Below are positions 13,245 through 23,230 of a stretch of 64,000 nt of DNA, piece by piece; the stretch's first letter is position 1; every line of letters starts with the position of its first letter. The notes below the pieces were generated by a model. It searched no databases, had not been told where the DNA came from, and worked only from the letters and a program-made list of their open reading frames with translations. The stretch spans positions 13,743 through 77,742 of the forward strand of contig CACKIH010000002.1 in the NCBI GenBank assembly GCA_902600225.1, written 5' to 3'. The stretch is from an uncultured Alphaproteobacteria bacterium (GTDB lineage Bacteria; Pseudomonadota; Alphaproteobacteria; HIMB59; GCA-002718135). A program made the translations under genes and the position numbers.

Positions 13245-13775
13245 TTAGTAAGGTATATGATAAGAAAAGCTTAGAATTTCAACTCCTGGATTTTTGTCAC
13301 CTAAATTTGCGTTTGAAATGTGACTAAATGAAATACCAATTCTATTTTGATTTTTTAATTCATAACTTAATTCAAATGAAGTTCTAAACTGTAGATTGTG
13401 TCCTAATTTTTTTCCAGAACCATCATCATAAATACCTGCCCCAAAACTTGGTGTAAAAAAAAATTTACTTTTATCTCCCTCCAATAATTCACCTATATTA
13501 TCTTCAAAATAAATACCAGTTAAAAAATAAGTAGCTGAGTCGTTTGTATACTCAACACCAAAGAAAGGTTTCAAGAAAAAAAAATTGTCTTCTTCTGGAC
13601 CAATATCAAGTAATGATTTATCACTTCTATATTCATATCTAAAGTCTGTAGCTTGATTTTTTTCAGAGCCATCAAATTTAATATCATAAATACCTAATCC
13701 GAATACATTTGTTCCTTTGCTAGCTAAAGAATTTGAAAAAAAAATAATCACTAATGGGATAAGTATTCTGATCAC
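13245..13775 (-). CDS. Outer-membrane acyloxyacyl hydrolase, lipid A 3-O-deacylase (PagL)-like
   Basis: Has a signal peptide, alternating beta-strand sequence, and a C-terminal FSHISNANLGDKNPGVEILSFSYHIPY that carries the H-x-S-N catalytic motif of the PagL family. Confidence 0.55.
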   Translation of the reverse strand: MIRILIPLVIIFFSNSLASKGTNVFGLGIYDIKFDGSEKNQATDFRYEYRSDKSLLDIGPEEDNFFFLKPFFGVEYTNDSATYFLTGIYFEDNIGELLEGDKSKFFFTPSFGAGIYDDGSGKKLGHNLQFRTSFELSYELKNQNRIGISFSHISNANLGDKNPGVEILSFSYHIPY

Positions 13776-13806: not shown

Positions 13807-14673
13807 TCAAATAAAAAATTCTTTATTTTGTTGAGATATATCTAATAGAGCTTTTTTTAGTTTATCTAGTGCTTTTGTTTCTATTTGCCTTACTCTTTCT
13901 TTGCTTATTTTTAATTTTTGTCCTAGTTCATCCAAAGTTATACTTCTCTCTCTAAATTTTCTGAGACGAATAATCGTTTTCTCTCTCTCATTTAAAGTAT
14001 CAATTGCTTGATTAATAAAATCTTTTTTTATATTCTTATCATTAAAATCTTCATATGACTCTTCAGGATTTTGACGCTCATCTGCTAAAAGACTCATTAG
14101 ATCATTTTCAGTTTCGTTATCAACTTTTTGATTAAGATGTAAGTCACCTCCAGTAAGTCTTGATTCCATGTTTTGAACTTCTATAGATTTAACATTAAGC
14201 ATATTTGATACTTTGTTAAGCTCTTCTTGACCCATAAATTCTCTTGATACATCATTAATTTGTTGTTTAATTTTTTTAAGATTAAAAAATAGAGCTTTCT
14301 GAGAGGCAGTAGAACCAGTTCTTACCACTGACCAGTTTTTTAAAATATAATCCTGAATAGAAGCTCTAATCCACCATGAAGCATAAGTTGAAAGTCTGAA
14401 ATCTTTAGAAGTATCGAATTTTTCTAAAGCATGCATAATTCCCAAAACACCCTCATGAATTAGATCGTCTATAGGTAAACCATAGCTAGAATATTTTCTT
14501 GCATATGAAATGGCTAATCGCAGATAAGAGTTAAGAATCTTTTGCAACGATTTTGGGGTTTTATTATCTCTCCAATCATTAATTAAATAGAATTCTTCTT
14601 CTTTTTCAAGAATTGCAGCTTTTTTTGAAAGCTCAATAAGATTGTTAGAAAAATAACGATTTTTTAAATCCAT
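13807..14673 (-). CDS. rpoH: RNA polymerase sigma-32 (heat shock) factor
   Basis: Sigma-70 regions 2-4 are present, along with an RpoH-box-like QKALFFNLKKIK. Length is 288 aa. Confidence 0.9.
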   Translation of the reverse strand: MDLKNRYFSNNLIELSKKAAILEKEEEFYLINDWRDNKTPKSLQKILNSYLRLAISYARKYSSYGLPIDDLIHEGVLGIMHALEKFDTSKDFRLSTYASWWIRASIQDYILKNWSVVRTGSTASQKALFFNLKKIKQQINDVSREFMGQEELNKVSNMLNVKSIEVQNMESRLTGGDLHLNQKVDNETENDLMSLLADERQNPEESYEDFNDKNIKKDFINQAIDTLNEREKTIIRLRKFRERSITLDELGQKLKISKERVRQIETKALDKLKKALLDISQQNKEFFI

Positions 14674-19380: not shown

Positions 19381-22023
19381 TTATGCGGCTTCTGAAATTA
19401 TTTCATTTAATACGTAATTTAAAATTCCTCCTGCTTTGTAATATTCAAGTTCTTTATTTGTATCTATTCTGCACTTTAATTTTATATTTTTAATTTCTTT
19501 TGAATTTATTTCACAACTAAGTAAGATTGCTGGTTTTAAATCAGACAAACCAGATATGGATATAAGTTCTTCACCTTCAATATTGAGATTTATTCTGTTT
19601 TCATTATTCATAAATTCCAAAGGCAAAACACCCATTCCAATTAAATTAGATCTGTGAATCCTCTCAAAGCTTTCAGCAATAACTGCTCTAACTCCTAAAA
19701 GTCTTGTTCCTTTTGCAGCCCAATCTCTTGATGAGCCTGTACCATATTCTTTTCCAGCAATTATTACAGTATCAATATTGCTTTTTATATATTCTTGAGC
19801 AGCATCATAAATTGACATTTGTTTGTTAGAGAGAAAAGATTTCGTGTACCCTCCTTCTACATTGTCTAAGATCTGATTCTTGATTCTTATATTTGCAAAG
19901 GTACCCCTCATCATAATTTCATGATTACCTCTTCTAGATCCATAAGAATTAAAGTTTCTAGAATTAATCTGTCTGTCTGTTAAATAGAGGCCTGCGGGAC
20001 TATCTACTTTAATATTTCCTGCAGGTGAAATATGGTCAGTTGTAACGCTATCACCAAGTAATGCTAATATTCTTGCATTTTTTATATCTCTTAGTTCAAA
20101 TTTATTTTTTATATCAAAAAAAGGTGGGTGCTTTATGTAAGTACTAGTATCGTTCCAATCATACGTAGTATTTTTAGAATTGTTAATAGATTTCCAGTTG
20201 TCATCTCCTTTGTAAATTTCTTTGTATCTTTCTTTAAACATCTCTGGAGTTAAACACAAACTAAGTGTCTCGTTAATTTCTTTATTTGATGGCCATAAGT
20301 CTTTTAGATATATTTTTTTTCCAGATTTAGATTTACCTATAGAGTCAGTTGTGAGGTTAACATTAATATTTCCCGCAATAGCATAAGCGACAACAAGAGG
20401 GGGTGAGGCAAGAAAATTCGCTTTCACTTCTTGATGAACTCTACCCTCGAAGTTTCTATTTCCAGATAAAACTGAACAAACAGTTAAATTATTTTTTTTG
20501 ATTTCATTAGACACCCATTCATCTAAGGGACCAGAATTGCCAATACAGGTTGTACATCCATAGCCAACGGTATTGAAACCTAAAAAATCAAGATATTCTG
20601 TTAATCCAGCCTTATCAAGATAGTCACTAACAACTTTACTACCTGGTGCTAAACTTGTCTTAACCCAAGGTTTTACTTCTAAATCTAAATCGATTGCCTT
20701 TTTAGCAACTAATCCTGCTGCGATCATAACATTGGGATTAGATGTATTTGTACAACTAGTAATAGCTGCTATTACAACATCACCAGTATTTAATTTGTTT
20801 ATATTTGAAATTTTTTTATTATCCATCTTACTAAATTCATTTGGTACTTCTTTTAAAAGAATTTTGTCTTGAGGTCTTTTGGGGCCTGCGAGAGTAGGTT
20901 CGACTGTTTCTAAATCTAATAATATTTTGTCAGAAAAATCTGGTGAATAATTATCATCTGCCCAAAGTGTTTGTTTTTTTGAATATTCTTCAACAATATT
21001 TAAGTGCTCACTTCTTTTGCCAGTTAATTTAAGATAATTAATTGTTTCTTCATCTGTTGGAAAAAATCCACAAGTTGCACCGTACTCTGGAGCCATGTTG
21101 GAAATTGTTGCTCTGTCAGCTAATGATAAATTGTTTAACCCTTTTCCATAAAATTCTACAAACTTTCCAACAACACCCTTGTCTCTAAGTATTTTAGTAA
21201 TAGATAAAACTAAATCAGTTGCTGTTATACCTTCCTTCAAGTTTCCTTTTAGTTCAAAACCAATAACTTCAGGAATATTCATGGAAATTGCTTGGCCTAA
21301 CATAGCAGCTTCAGCCTCTATTCCCCCAACTCCCCAGCCTAAAACAGAAAGCGAGTTTACCATTGTTGTATGGCTATCTGTTCCCACAACTGAATCTGGA
21401 AATAAATAATTTTGATTATTAATTTCTTTCATCCAGATGGTCTTTGCTATGTTTTCTAAATTTACTTGATGACAAATTCCTGCCCCTGGCGGCACAAGAT
21501 AAAAATTATCGAACGAACTTTGTCCCCATTTAAGAAATTCATATCTTTCTTTATTTCTATCAAATTCTTTTCTAACATTTTCTTTAAGTGAATTTTTATC
21601 CTTATAGTTATCTACCATAACAGAGTGATCAATAACCAGATCAACTCTAGATAATGGATTTATTTTTTTTGGTTCAATTCCTCTTGATTTTAATGCATTT
21701 CGCATTGCAGCAAGGTCGGCAACTGCTGGAACTCCAGTAAAATCCTGCATTAAAACTCTAGTCGGAAAAAAAGCTATTTCAATTTTTTCTCCCTTTTTAT
21801 TAATTTCTTTTAAAGAATTGAAAACTTTTGAGATCATATCTTTATTGATATTCTCGCCATCTTCGTTTCTAAGTAGATTTTCAATTATTATTTTTATAGA
21901 AATTGGTATTTTACTTAATTCGGTATCAAAATATTCAGCTGCTTTATTTAAATTAAAATATTTGAACTTTTGATCATTTATTTCAATTGTATCTTCTGAA
22001 TTGAAAGAATTTGTATTTTTCAT
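19381..22023 (-). CDS. acnA: Aconitate hydratase A
   Basis: An 880-aa protein with the Fe-S ligand regions GTDSHT, ITSCTNTSNP and CTTCIGNSG. Confidence 0.97.
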   Translation of the reverse strand: MKNTNSFNSEDTIEINDQKFKYFNLNKAAEYFDTELSKIPISIKIIIENLLRNEDGENINKDMISKVFNSLKEINKKGEKIEIAFFPTRVLMQDFTGVPAVADLAAMRNALKSRGIEPKKINPLSRVDLVIDHSVMVDNYKDKNSLKENVRKEFDRNKERYEFLKWGQSSFDNFYLVPPGAGICHQVNLENIAKTIWMKEINNQNYLFPDSVVGTDSHTTMVNSLSVLGWGVGGIEAEAAMLGQAISMNIPEVIGFELKGNLKEGITATDLVLSITKILRDKGVVGKFVEFYGKGLNNLSLADRATISNMAPEYGATCGFFPTDEETINYLKLTGKRSEHLNIVEEYSKKQTLWADDNYSPDFSDKILLDLETVEPTLAGPKRPQDKILLKEVPNEFSKMDNKKISNINKLNTGDVVIAAITSCTNTSNPNVMIAAGLVAKKAIDLDLEVKPWVKTSLAPGSKVVSDYLDKAGLTEYLDFLGFNTVGYGCTTCIGNSGPLDEWVSNEIKKNNLTVCSVLSGNRNFEGRVHQEVKANFLASPPLVVAYAIAGNINVNLTTDSIGKSKSGKKIYLKDLWPSNKEINETLSLCLTPEMFKERYKEIYKGDDNWKSINNSKNTTYDWNDTSTYIKHPPFFDIKNKFELRDIKNARILALLGDSVTTDHISPAGNIKVDSPAGLYLTDRQINSRNFNSYGSRRGNHEIMMRGTFANIRIKNQILDNVEGGYTKSFLSNKQMSIYDAAQEYIKSNIDTVIIAGKEYGTGSSRDWAAKGTRLLGVRAVIAESFERIHRSNLIGMGVLPLEFMNNENRINLNIEGEELISISGLSDLKPAILLSCEINSKEIKNIKLKCRIDTNKELEYYKAGGILNYVLNEIISEAA

Positions 22024-22228
22024 GCTAAAGTTGATAAATAATTATAATAATTAAATAGTATGAAGATAAATTTTTGTATAGCAAAATGTTTATTTATTAT
22101 CAGTTTTCTGCGAAAAAATAAAAAAGTAAGTTAATTTTTTTTATATTAAGTTTTTTAAAATAATAATTTAAATCTATAATAAGATTAATCTAATAATATT
22201 GCTATATTGTTGACTTTAATCGTAAGTT

Positions 22229-22257
22229 TTGGGAATAAACTCTTAGCCTTTTATAAT
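22229..22257 (+). promoter_or_regulatory. Putative sigma-70 promoter (TTGGGA-17 nt-TATAAT) for the lysine-rich gene
   Basis: The -35 element ttggga lies at 22229-22234, followed by a 17-nt spacer and a perfect -10 tataat at 22252-22257. An AAGGAG RBS sits 7 nt before the ATG at 22319. Confidence 0.4.
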
Positions 22258-22318
22258 TATCACTTAGGTGATAATGGAGGGAGGTTCCTCCGGGGTAACA
22301 AAATACAAGGAGTATTTT

Positions 22319-22495
22319 ATGGCTAAGAAGAAAAAGAAAGCTGCTCCAAAGAAAAAGAAAAAAGCAGCTCCTAAGAAAAAGAAAAAAGCAGCTCCTAAAA
22401 AGAAAAAGAAAAAAGCTGCTCCTAAGAAAAAGAAAAAAGCAGCTCCTAAAAAGAAAAAGAAAAAAGCTGCTAAAAAGAAGAAGAAAAGAAGATAG
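22319..22495 (+). CDS. Lysine-rich (AAPKKKKK)n repeat protein, histone H1-like / polycationic, 58 aa
   Basis: Translates as MAKKKKKAAPKKKKKAAPKKKKKAAPKKKKKKAAPKKKKKAAPKKKKKKAAKKKKKRR. A strong AAGGAG RBS precedes it and two hairpin terminators follow it. The track ORF (22268) carries an in-frame 5' extension that I consider less likely. Confidence 0.7.
   Translation: MAKKKKKAAPKKKKKAAPKKKKKAAPKKKKKKAAPKKKKKAAPKKKKKKAAKKKKKRR
22340..22465 (+). repeat. In-frame tandem repeat: 24/27-nt units, including a 51-nt unit duplicated at 50/51 identity
   Basis: Segments 22364-22414 and 22415-22465 differ only at one position (gca vs gct). A related 24-nt unit lies at 22340-22363. Confidence 0.9.
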
Positions 22496-22514
22496 TAATA
22501 CTTCAATTTTTCAG

Positions 22515-22542
22515 GAAAACTTTAATTTAAAGTTTTCTTTTT
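22515..22542 (+). terminator. AT-rich hairpin + T-run (weak intrinsic terminator)
   Basis: The 9-bp stem is gaaaacttt/aaagttttc with a 5-nt loop, followed by ttttt. Confidence 0.45.
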
Positions 22543-22562
22543 CTTATCTTTTTCAAAAAGAT

Positions 22563-22589
22563 AAAACGGGGTTCTGCCCCGTTTTTTTT
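22563..22589 (+). terminator. Rho-independent terminator
   Basis: The sequence aaaacgggg-ttctg-ccccgtttttttt has a GC stem flanked by an A-run and a T8 run, so it may act bidirectionally. Confidence 0.8.
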
Positions 22590-22624
22590 ATTGTTTTAAA
22601 TCAAAAAGTGATTAGATCAAAATA

Positions 22625-23230
22625 ATGCTAATTGTTAAGGATTTATCAGTAGAAAGAATAAATAAAAAAATATTTGAAAATATTAATTTATCACTTACGC
22701 CAGGTAATATTACTATCTTAAAAGGTAAAAATGGTTCTGGCAAAACCACTTTGCTAAAAACAATGTTAAATATAATAGAGCCATCTGCTGGATCAATATT
22801 TTGGAAAGGGAAATTATTGAAAAGAAATTTTTATGATTTCTATAATCATACTACATACATAGCTGATACAACATCAAGCTTAAAAAAGTTAACTGTAAAA
22901 GATAATGTTAATATTTGGAGAAAATTTTTTATATCCAATATTAATGATGCTCAAATTGAAATGGCGTTAAAAACCTTAAAATTAGATAATTATTTGAATA
23001 AAAAAGTTGCAACATTATCTTTTGGTGAAACTAAAAAATTAGAATTTTTAAGATTAATAATAGAAAACAAAAAAGTTTGGATTTTAGATGAACCTCTTTC
23101 TAATTTAGATGAAGATTCTATTGAACTAATGAAACAAACTTTTGAAGATCATTCCTCAAAAGAAGGATCTATAATTTTTAGCTCACATCAAAATCCAGGT
23201 ATTTATGTGACAGAAGAAATTGAGCTATAA
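22625..23230 (+). CDS. ccmA: Heme exporter ATP-binding protein CcmA
   Basis: Contains Walker A GKNGSGKTTLLK, the signature LSFGETKK and Walker B ILDEP. It is the first gene of the ccm operon. Confidence 0.85.
   Translation: MLIVKDLSVERINKKIFENINLSLTPGNITILKGKNGSGKTTLLKTMLNIIEPSAGSIFWKGKLLKRNFYDFYNHTTYIADTTSSLKKLTVKDNVNIWRKFFISNINDAQIEMALKTLKLDNYLNKKVATLSFGETKKLEFLRLIIENKKVWILDEPLSNLDEDSIELMKQTFEDHSSKEGSIIFSSHQNPGIYVTEEIEL

Follow-up and report, generated by a model that had tools for sequence, protein, structure and literature searches.

A conserved, repeat-only polycation gene of SAR11 bacteria, with nucleic acids as the putative target

We describe a small gene in a 64,000-nucleotide (nt) stretch of DNA from an uncultured alphaproteobacterium (contig CACKIH010000002.1, positions 13,743 to 77,742; 'the window' in what follows), which encodes a protein of 58 residues made entirely of lysine-rich repeats. 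The gene is universally conserved in the SAR11 bacteria (Pelagibacteraceae) that we sampled, and its open reading frame (ORF) is under strong purifying selection for both frame and positive charge; we are highly confident that it is a real, translated gene. To judge from its composition, the product is likely to be a non-specific nucleic-acid polycation. For the fuller proposal, that the unit is a SAR11 gene for an unfolded, electrostatic polycation with DNA favoured as the main target, we consider the case to be evenly balanced. Polycations with Lys/Ala/Pro (K/A/P) repeats are a known kind; what is new here is a minimal, repeat-only example with unusually conserved RNA features.

The gene and its product

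The ORF (Table 1) reads MAKKKKK(AAPK5-6)5AAKKKKKRR, given in full as MAKKKKKAAPKKKKKAAPKKKKKAAPKKKKKKAAPKKKKKAAPKKKKKKAAKKKKKRR (the translation of 22319-22495 on the + strand), with Tandem Repeats Finder reporting a 24/51-bp repeat at 22323-22487. There are 37 Lys, 13 Ala, 5 Pro and 2 Arg residues besides the single Met, such that basic residues make up 67% of the product and acidic or hydrophobic residues none of it; the computed charge is +38.5 at pH 7, the pI 12.0 and the mass 6.6 kDa, with calculated values of 6,613 Da when Met is kept and 6,482 Da when it is removed. Folding, catalysis, membrane insertion and secretion are excluded by this composition, since there is no hydrophobic or acidic residue, and no signal peptide or hydrophobic segment is present. 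The ORF sits between acnA (aconitase, 19381-22023, - strand) and ccmA, in a gap of 601 nt that is the largest of the window, where the median gap is 5 nt.

Much of this had been set out in a first-pass annotation of the window, which described a stand-alone polycationic ORF of net charge about +39, lying by itself in some 600 bp of non-coding DNA and furnished with its own expression signals. The translation proved exact, the gap is as described, and the signals are there, and conserved, including both the GGAGG-GAGGTT-CCTCC hairpin at 22276-22291 and the AAGGAG ribosome-binding site that it had singled out. Two hairpins had been placed after the stop codon (22515-22537 and 22563-22585); we find both, and a third at 22544-22564.

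Conservation in genomes and metagenomes

Contigs that code for an identical 58-residue product occur in 948 blocks of a public collection, and the order acnA / ORF / ccmABC is the same in ten SAR11 single-cell or metagenome genomes. Those ten genomes had been picked by protein identity; the test was then repeated independently of the ORF: with the aconitase protein as query, a scan of a single genome for each species gave 71 loci. In these aconitase-chosen species the ORF is present at all 53 of the Pelagibacterales loci that have enough upstream DNA, the other 18 of the 71 comprising 17 that are cut by contig ends and one from a Halobacteriovoraceae genome. The carriers include a divergent clade with an aconitase only 69-72% identical, in which the protein reads MAKKKKKAAPKRKKAAPKRKK...AAKKRRR, and the 53 species loci between them hold 27 protein variants of 47-82 residues, all in frame.

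The metagenome scan, made with the N-terminal coding pattern, returned 106 matches, and our figures cover 80 of the 106 as loci. Around 75 of these 80 are SAR11-type, with 54 complete copies (49-92 residues) and 21 that end at a contig edge inside the ORF; 53 of the 54 complete copies are intact, the exception being a frameshifted copy from a single Sanger read. Of the 107 complete copies in genomes and metagenomes together, 106 keep an intact frame; lengths range from 47 to 92 residues, with changes in repeat number always in frame, and the proteins are 57-68% basic, in blocks of 3-7 Lys/Arg residues (mostly 4-6) split by Ala-Ala-Pro. Conservation in relatives, a test that was set beforehand, is thus borne out in the species set and in the metagenomes alike.

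Beyond the 21 of about 75 SAR11-type contigs that stop within the ORF, several more start or stop a few dozen bases away from it; assembly tends to break off at the repeat, and the gene is probably under-represented or truncated in metagenome-assembled genomes. The divergent clade (loci L057-L070, L075 and many of the metagenome loci) shows replacement of Lys by Arg (AGA), up to 12 times per protein; its basic blocks, KRKK or KKKK, are shorter, and its repeats more numerous, so that L117 reaches 92 residues.

Relatives outside SAR11 were not found, HMMER-type searches being blind to such composition, and DNA coding for (AAPKKKKK)2 was not found in viral contigs. Two mini-ORFs (L137 and L143) and three other matches (L105, L109 and L118) were judged to be unrelated, as their contexts differ. 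The mini-ORFs (L143:3610-4045 and L137:81-308) lie on contigs in the 44-56% GC range and are polybasic, 19 and 22 residues long, with the start MAKKKKKAAPK; that of L143 adjoins an rpoD gene whose product has a K/A/P-rich N-terminus. The same start is found on a 44% GC contig (L118:1136-1326) in a longer, H1-like protein of K, A, P and R.

Selection on frame, charge and codons

In the 28 orthologues of 58 residues, variable columns are distributed over codon positions 1, 2 and 3 in the proportion 1:1:22. The residues found in 106 intact copies are limited to M, A, K, P, R, T and S, and at their approximately 4,280 basic positions K or R stand exclusively; the remaining single-base neighbours of AAA (N, E, Q, I and T) never appear there. 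The longest run of basic residues does not exceed seven in any intact copy, and both the AAP spacing and the N- and C-termini are kept.

Codon choice is patterned as well. AAG provides 16 of the 37 Lys codons (43%), a share that is 13.8% among 62 genes of the window (p = 1.2e-5; these genes were called crudely, with starts taken from the longest ATG ORF), and the longest run of A is 6 nt in the window copy and 5-8 nt across 54 of 54 orthologues. Back-translation with the codon usage of the window genes gives an expected median of 18 nt, with a longest run of 8 nt or less in 0 of 100,000 back-translations (P < 1e-5). The codons are chosen so that poly(A) runs stay interrupted; this avoidance fits with the sliding of ribosomes documented on poly(A) tracts of AAA-lysine codons (PMC4363877), and it is of consequence only where the reading frame is.

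The marks of a coding gene under purifying selection (an intact frame, third-position bias and conservative replacements) are all present. It is on this comparative evidence that the reality of the gene rests, because the promoter match by itself is not above chance.

Promoter candidates and the structured leader

Both the leader and the 3' untranslated region (UTR) are nearly invariant between clades whose aconitases are only about 70% identical, which is striking in a genome that is AT-rich and evolves fast. From 22200 to the ATG the pattern shared by the clades is ATTGTTGACTTT-nnn-CGTAAGTTTTGGGAA.AAA-(about 5 variable nt)-AGCCTTTTAT..TT.TCAC-loop-GTGAT.ATGGAGG..GGTTCCTCC....TAAC..A.TACAAGGAG.ATT..ATG, in which the candidate promoter P1, a motif that occurs once in the window, is followed by five variable nucleotides (22240-22244) before invariance returns at AGCC.

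The first-pass annotation had proposed a different promoter, TTGGGA-17-TATAAT (P2 in Table 1), the divergent-clade counterpart of which is TTGGGA-16-TATGTT. The element is present and matches at 10 of 12 positions, but the match is at chance level (promoter-like sites in the window number 5, against 4.7 expected in shuffles) and overlaps a covarying hairpin. Because the first base of this hairpin (22257-22274) is also the final one of the P2 -10 box, a transcript from P2 would not contain the hairpin in full; we regard P2 as doubtful and TTGACT-18-AATAAA of P1 as more likely to be the main promoter, with a start near A22245. On that reading, the variable nucleotides 22240-22244 would separate the -10 box from the start. 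By eye, the upstream block gave no match to sigma-32, sigma-54 or extracytoplasmic function (ECF) promoters.

Table 1. Features of the polycation gene and of its flanks (coordinates in the window)
Feature	Position	Strand	Remarks
Whole polycation unit	22210-22589	+	self-contained gene with its own signals
Near-invariant upstream block, candidate promoter P1	22200-22239	+	53-sequence leader alignment, both clades
P1 part, TTGACT	22210-22215	+	
P1 part, CGTAAGTTTTGGGAA	22221-22235	+	
P1 part, AATAAA	22234-22239	+	
Candidate promoter P2, TTGGGA-17-TATAAT	22229-22257	+	matches at 10/12 positions
Putative structured 5' leader, about 74 nt	22245-22318	+	RNAalifold consensus, 30 distinct leaders
Leader hairpin, UUAUCAC-UUAG-GUGAUAA	22257-22274	+	covariation
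Leader hairpin, GGAGG-GAGGUU-CCUCC	22276-22291	+	stem invariant, changes confined to the loop
Shine-Dalgarno sequence, AAGGAG	22307-22312	+	6 nt before the ATG
Polycation coding sequence	22319-22495	+	ATG to TAG; 58 residues; 24/27-bp tandem repeats
Complements of the pyrimidine tract in the coding sequence	22328-22342, 22349-22361, 22372-22385, 22400-22412, 22423-22436, 22451-22463		
Hairpin H1, GAAAACUUUAA/UUAAAGUUUUC	22515-22537	+	perfect 11-nt inverted repeat
Pyrimidine tract, UUUUCUUUUUCUUA (= TTTTCTTTTTCTTA)	22533-22546	+	invariant, between H1 and H2
Hairpin H2, UUAUCUUUUU-C-AAAAAGAUAA	22544-22564	+	perfect 10-nt inverted repeat
Intrinsic terminator H3, AAAACGGGG-UUCU-GCCCCGUUUU plus eight U	22563-22589	+	GC-rich stem
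ccmA	22625-23230	+	heads the ccmABCDEF operon; neighbour, outside the polycation unit

Downstream of P1, the RNAalifold consensus predicts three helices, in which 98.5% of cells pair, compared with 44-67% when the partners are slid; the leader of the window copy folds at -25.1 kcal/mol (z = -3.5), and the fold of the whole predicted transcript has z = -4.7. Two pairs in the first hairpin (22257-22274) are compensated (A-U to G-C and U-A to A-U), with many G-U wobbles that pair in + strand RNA only; more compensated variants occur in three metagenome copies (L096, L097 and L121), and the stem is longer (UCACUUA/UAAGUGA) in the divergent clade. For the second, the sole stem variant, GGGGG, keeps its pairing through G-U; GGTTCCTCC is found once in the window, and the GGAGG/CCUCC duplex resembles a Shine-Dalgarno:anti-Shine-Dalgarno pair. 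As to the third helix, AGCCUUUUAU (22245-22254) can pair with AUACAAGGAG, which spans the ribosome-binding site; we offer as a hypothesis, from the modelled fold, that this pairing sequesters it.

Both AAGGAG and the ATG are unchanged in all copies. AAGGAG stands upstream of just one of the 62 window genes, and in 57 of the 62 the 20 nt ahead of the start contain no Shine-Dalgarno-like 4-mer. Shine-Dalgarno pairing thus appears to be dispensable for most translation initiation in this genome. Three further leader features were set aside because they are not conserved in the divergent clade, namely a hairpin with the ribosome-binding site in its loop (AAAAUAC/GUAUUUU), the AGCC/GGCU pairing of the single-sequence fold, and GUAACAA as a mimic of the 3' region of 16S rRNA.

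The 3' UTR and a possible duplex with the coding sequence

Three pairs of H1 are compensated between clades (for example, C-G to A-U in 11 of 28 sequences). The H2 stem appears to be compensated likewise, with UAAUUUU/AAAAUUA in the divergent clade, as read by eye from the alignment, and H3 keeps an invariant stem and a variable loop in all clades; terminator-like sites in the window number 2, against 0.3 expected. Rfam 15 gave nothing above gathering in 21900-22750, the best match being wcaG over the terminators (29.6 bits, against a gathering score of 42), and in the window as a whole it gave one tRNA only.

The pyrimidine tract and the Lys-codon block U AAG AAA AAG AAA A are perfectly complementary over 13-14 nt, and 54 of 54 orthologues retain this complement. 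Genes of the divergent clade always carry it in the final AAP block, where the synonymous sites are fixed and those of the other blocks vary; L067 and L070 hold extra copies in earlier blocks. A duplex between coding sequence and 3' UTR could form through the tract.

Linkage to ccmA and other neighbouring genes

Wherever the flank is long enough (120 of 120 loci), ccmA lies downstream on the same strand, 124-164 nt past the polycation stop codon. Aconitase is divergent and upstream in 80 of 81 loci; at the exception (L056:1-6596, from AG-897-D18, with an aconitase of 76% identity) acnA and the polycation gene share a strand, a 298-residue ORF lies between the two, and the linkage of polycation gene and ccmA is kept. 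The distance from the U-run of the terminator to the ATG of ccmA is just 33-36 nt in all clades. A weak promoter-like pattern, TTG...TTAGAT/TTTAAT, is seen over window positions 22582-22627 (loci L011-L075). Expression of ccm would come either from a promoter that overlaps the terminator, giving a near-leaderless mRNA, or from transcripts of the polycation promoter that read through the terminator.

The next-largest apparent gaps of the window contain GTG-start or small genes. An apparent gap of 566 nt at 13245-13775 (-) is a GTG-start ORF of 176 residues, and the 288-residue ORF beside it (13807-14673, -) looks by eye like a member of the sigma-70 family; both are unrelated to the polycation.

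Homology searches and comparison with known systems

With Pfam, hmmscan of the product matched no family at E<=10 (PF00538, PF07432 and PF07382 included), HMMER composition filters being such as to penalise sequences of this type, and NCBIfam gave no match, its ribosomal-protein models included. Word-indexed phmmer, a method blind to this composition, found none of 8,000 candidates significant; full phmmer over 1.84 billion representatives gave three weak matches, to unrelated eukaryote-like repeat proteins, and missed the SAR11 copies too. An exact-sequence cluster look-up did not find the product in that collection. As such searches are blind to this composition, the lack of homologues says little.

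The first-pass annotation had called the product histone H1-like, with no globular domain attached. The latter is correct, in that all 58 residues are repeat; of the former, the K/A/P-rich tail composition stands, whereas the globular winged helix of linker histones H1/H5 (PF00538) is absent, nothing in Pfam or NCBIfam and neither Hc1 nor Hc2 is matched, and the product comes nearer to protamine or polylysine. With the disordered tail of H1/H5 the resemblance is one of composition only. We consider 'H1-like nucleoid protein' reasonable as a functional analogy, as opposed to a family assignment. The annotation's suggestion that Glu-C or Asp-N digestion be used for detection fails, because a product with no D or E offers no cut sites.

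Several systems invite comparison. The C-terminal domain of eukaryotic H1, with its SPKK/APKK motifs, shares K/A/P composition, disorder and A-P-K-K turns with the polycation, which differs in being bacterial, in its much higher charge density and in having no winged helix. Chlamydia Hc1 (hctA) and Hc2 (hctB) are likewise Lys/Ala-rich, low-complexity bacterial proteins, and theirs condense DNA; Hc1 is under translational control. They differ from the polycation in that Hc2 is 165-237 residues long and less extreme in charge, that Hc1 has a conserved N-terminal region, and that the expression of both follows a developmental cycle, which SAR11 does not have. The short lysine-rich repeats of Hc2 differ in number among strains (PMC2848022), and this is paralleled by the variation in the SAR11 polycation. 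We take the likeness to Hc1/Hc2 to be one of convergent composition, with homology not demonstrable from the sequences.

Tandem repeats of the K-P-A-A type, H1-tail-like and polyanion-binding, are also found in Pseudomonas AlgP (AlgR3), in Bordetella BpH1 and in the tails of PhaF and mycobacterial HupB. Those proteins carry KPAA or AAKP units with about 25-40% Lys and a structured domain attached (N-terminal in AlgP), whereas the SAR11 polycation is repeat only, with a unit of AAPK(4-6) of 7-9 residues, runs of 5-6 Lys and 67% basic residues, around twice the level of those proteins. Protamines and poly-L-lysine are alike in small size, in being about two-thirds basic, in having no fold and in their presumed electrostatic mode of condensation; protamines, however, are Arg-rich, eukaryotic and sperm-specific, where the polycation is Lys-rich (Arg-enriched in one clade), probably constitutive and from a free-living bacterium. 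Lastly, the mini-proteins bS22, bL37, bTHX and eL41 are similarly of some tens of residues, more than 50% basic and without an independent fold, but, unlike the polycation, of fixed length and non-repetitive. A consensus Shine-Dalgarno sequence in a Shine-Dalgarno-poor genome recalls the autoregulated rpsU of Bacteroidetes.

A model for the polycation and its rivals

Synthesis of these observations leads us to a tentative model. A short, stable and abundant mRNA of about 345 nt would be transcribed, and its product, having neither fold nor specificity, would bind the polyanions of the cell by electrostatics alone and condense them, in the manner of a counter-ion. Chromosomal DNA is the target that we favour, by way of protamine-like or H1-tail-like compaction and charge neutralisation in an extremely small cell, with the AAP kinks at every 6-9 residues serving to space the charge blocks along the backbone; in so small a cell, DNA rather than rRNA is a dominant polyanion. 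Translation would probably be restricted by the leader and perhaps also by the 3' UTR pyrimidine tract, with feedback by the polycation itself as a plausible mode. Taken on its own, the choice of DNA over RNA or the ribosome falls a little short of an even chance.

We also entertain, as an unlikely but coherent extension, that the protein is a SAR11 'protamine', that is, an abundant main counter-ion of the chromosome (perhaps also of RNA), in a cell that ranks with the smallest free-living ones, whose synthesis is self-limited through the structures of its own mRNA. Free polycation would in that event stabilise the Shine-Dalgarno mimic, the pairing of the 5' end with the ribosome-binding site and the duplex of coding sequence and pyrimidine tract, and the same transcript might supply low-level read-through to the ccm operon.

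Several points weigh against DNA condensation as the role. Homology to any validated DNA-binding protein was not detected, and the choice between DNA and RNA draws solely on composition and on general knowledge of cell size. The SAR11 transcriptome, proteome and RNA-motif papers that we searched make no mention of the polycation; nor does a survey of Pelagibacter structured RNAs, its lists of intergenic regions and misannotated genes included, or a Red Sea transcription-start-site paper, in which only annotated genes are listed. A nucleoid role gives no account of the fixed linkage to ccmA, and since no base varies in the helix proposed to sequester the ribosome-binding site, covariation speaks neither for nor against that helix. 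Finally, such extreme conservation of the UTRs, together with a hairpin that mimics Shine-Dalgarno pairing, is less typical of nucleoid proteins than of RNA-binding proteins that autoregulate their translation, for instance ribosomal proteins.

It is this last point that underlies the main rival, to which we give a minority share of belief: a lineage-specific, very basic mini-protein of the ribosome or an RNA chaperone (functionally like bS22, bL37, bTHX or eL41) that fills rRNA grooves or stabilises RNA, and that represses its own translation by binding the Shine-Dalgarno-mimic hairpin of the leader. Genes for ribosomal proteins are usually controlled in this way, by feedback based on mRNA mimicry, and eL41 and bS22 are similar to the polycation in size and charge density; the leader is conserved in sequence as well as in structure, GGAGG/CCUCC being invariant, and a consensus Shine-Dalgarno sequence is used where nearly all window genes do without. 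Set against this, ribosomal models in NCBIfam and Pfam are unmatched, a length of 47-92 residues among close relatives would be unusual for a fixed rRNA pocket, the gene stands outside ribosomal-protein operons, and the 16S-like leader segment GUAACAA is not kept in the divergent clade. An alternative that we find improbable would make the ORF a cis-regulatory upstream ORF for ccm, in which slow translation of Lys-rich codons tunes read-through and the peptide is incidental. The invariable position of ccmA, even at L056 with its rearranged acnA, speaks for it, as do the little space left for a promoter of its own after the U-run and the capacity of the pyrimidine tract by the terminators to pair with the coding repeats. 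Linkage as such is, however, a weak argument in highly syntenic SAR11 genomes, and we know of no connection between lysine and haem export. An attenuation leader peptide, moreover, is not expected to have its Lys freely replaced by Arg; that this is frequent in the divergent clade means that charge is conserved, and not the Lys codon or demand for Lys-tRNA. The conserved AAP spacing, termini and basic content are as for a functional product, and the strong GC terminator H3 is without an evident antiterminator or a conserved competing structure in the folds, although pairing of the pyrimidine tract with the coding sequence leaves a small doubt.

Marginally less probable again is some other polyanion as the target, be it polyphosphate granules, anionic lipids or the envelope, or else a role in lysine or nitrogen storage. 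Electrostatics alone do not tell polyanions apart, and AlgP of Pseudomonas, a K/P/A-repeat, H1-like protein, localises to polyphosphate granules, which it spaces, as well as to the nucleoid (PMC9239181). Nothing in this analysis supports polyphosphate granules in SAR11, the lack of a signal peptide or hydrophobic segment counts against the envelope, and the 101 nitrogen atoms computed for 58 residues, like the strict repeat architecture, fit poorly with a store in a nitrogen-thrifty organism. We attach least credence of all, and very little, to there being no + strand protein, with the locus acting as a purine-rich repeat element of RNA or DNA or encoding an antisense Phe/Leu-rich ORF (22264-22506, -). 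That antisense frame is open over 80 residues, and third codon positions are common to both frames, such that synonymous changes on the + strand are silent on the - strand too; the highly conserved untranslated regions are, for their part, RNA-like. The frame is open, however, because + strand codons that start with AA, GC, CC, AG or AC cannot give stops there. By a loose script in which the frame was not fixed, 128 of 132 copies are without an ATG, GTG or TTG ahead of the Phe-rich part, and replacements of F by I, V or L (TTA/TTG), tolerable in a hydrophobic peptide and read on the + strand as K replaced by I, T or N, are never seen; we have rejected the antisense ORF as a by-product. The Shine-Dalgarno sequence and ATG, like the stop codon and the terminators, are conserved and oriented for the + strand. 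Translation is indicated by the 1:1:22 codon periodicity, by repeat numbers that change in frame and by the shortness of the A-runs, and as a non-coding RNA the locus matches no Rfam family.

Significance

SAR11 bacteria, which serve as a model for genome streamlining, rank with the most abundant organisms of the ocean. Amid spacers with a median of 5 nt, a gene that is universally conserved and has signals so elaborate must matter to the cell. It has been well hidden, in that homology searches are blind to it, trypsin would cleave its product at nearly every residue and metagenome assemblies tend to break inside it.

Were the polycation indeed a major counter-ion of DNA or RNA, it would bear on how a chromosome of 1.3 Mb is packed into a very small cell, on the cation, polyamine and nitrogen economy of that cell, and on how extreme polybasic proteins get translated; the interleaving of AAG with AAA and the limit of seven consecutive basic residues look like natural answers to poly(A) sliding and to stalling in the exit tunnel. 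The polycation also offers a minimal natural system for the condensation of nucleic acids by a polycation, with possible feedback through RNA structure.

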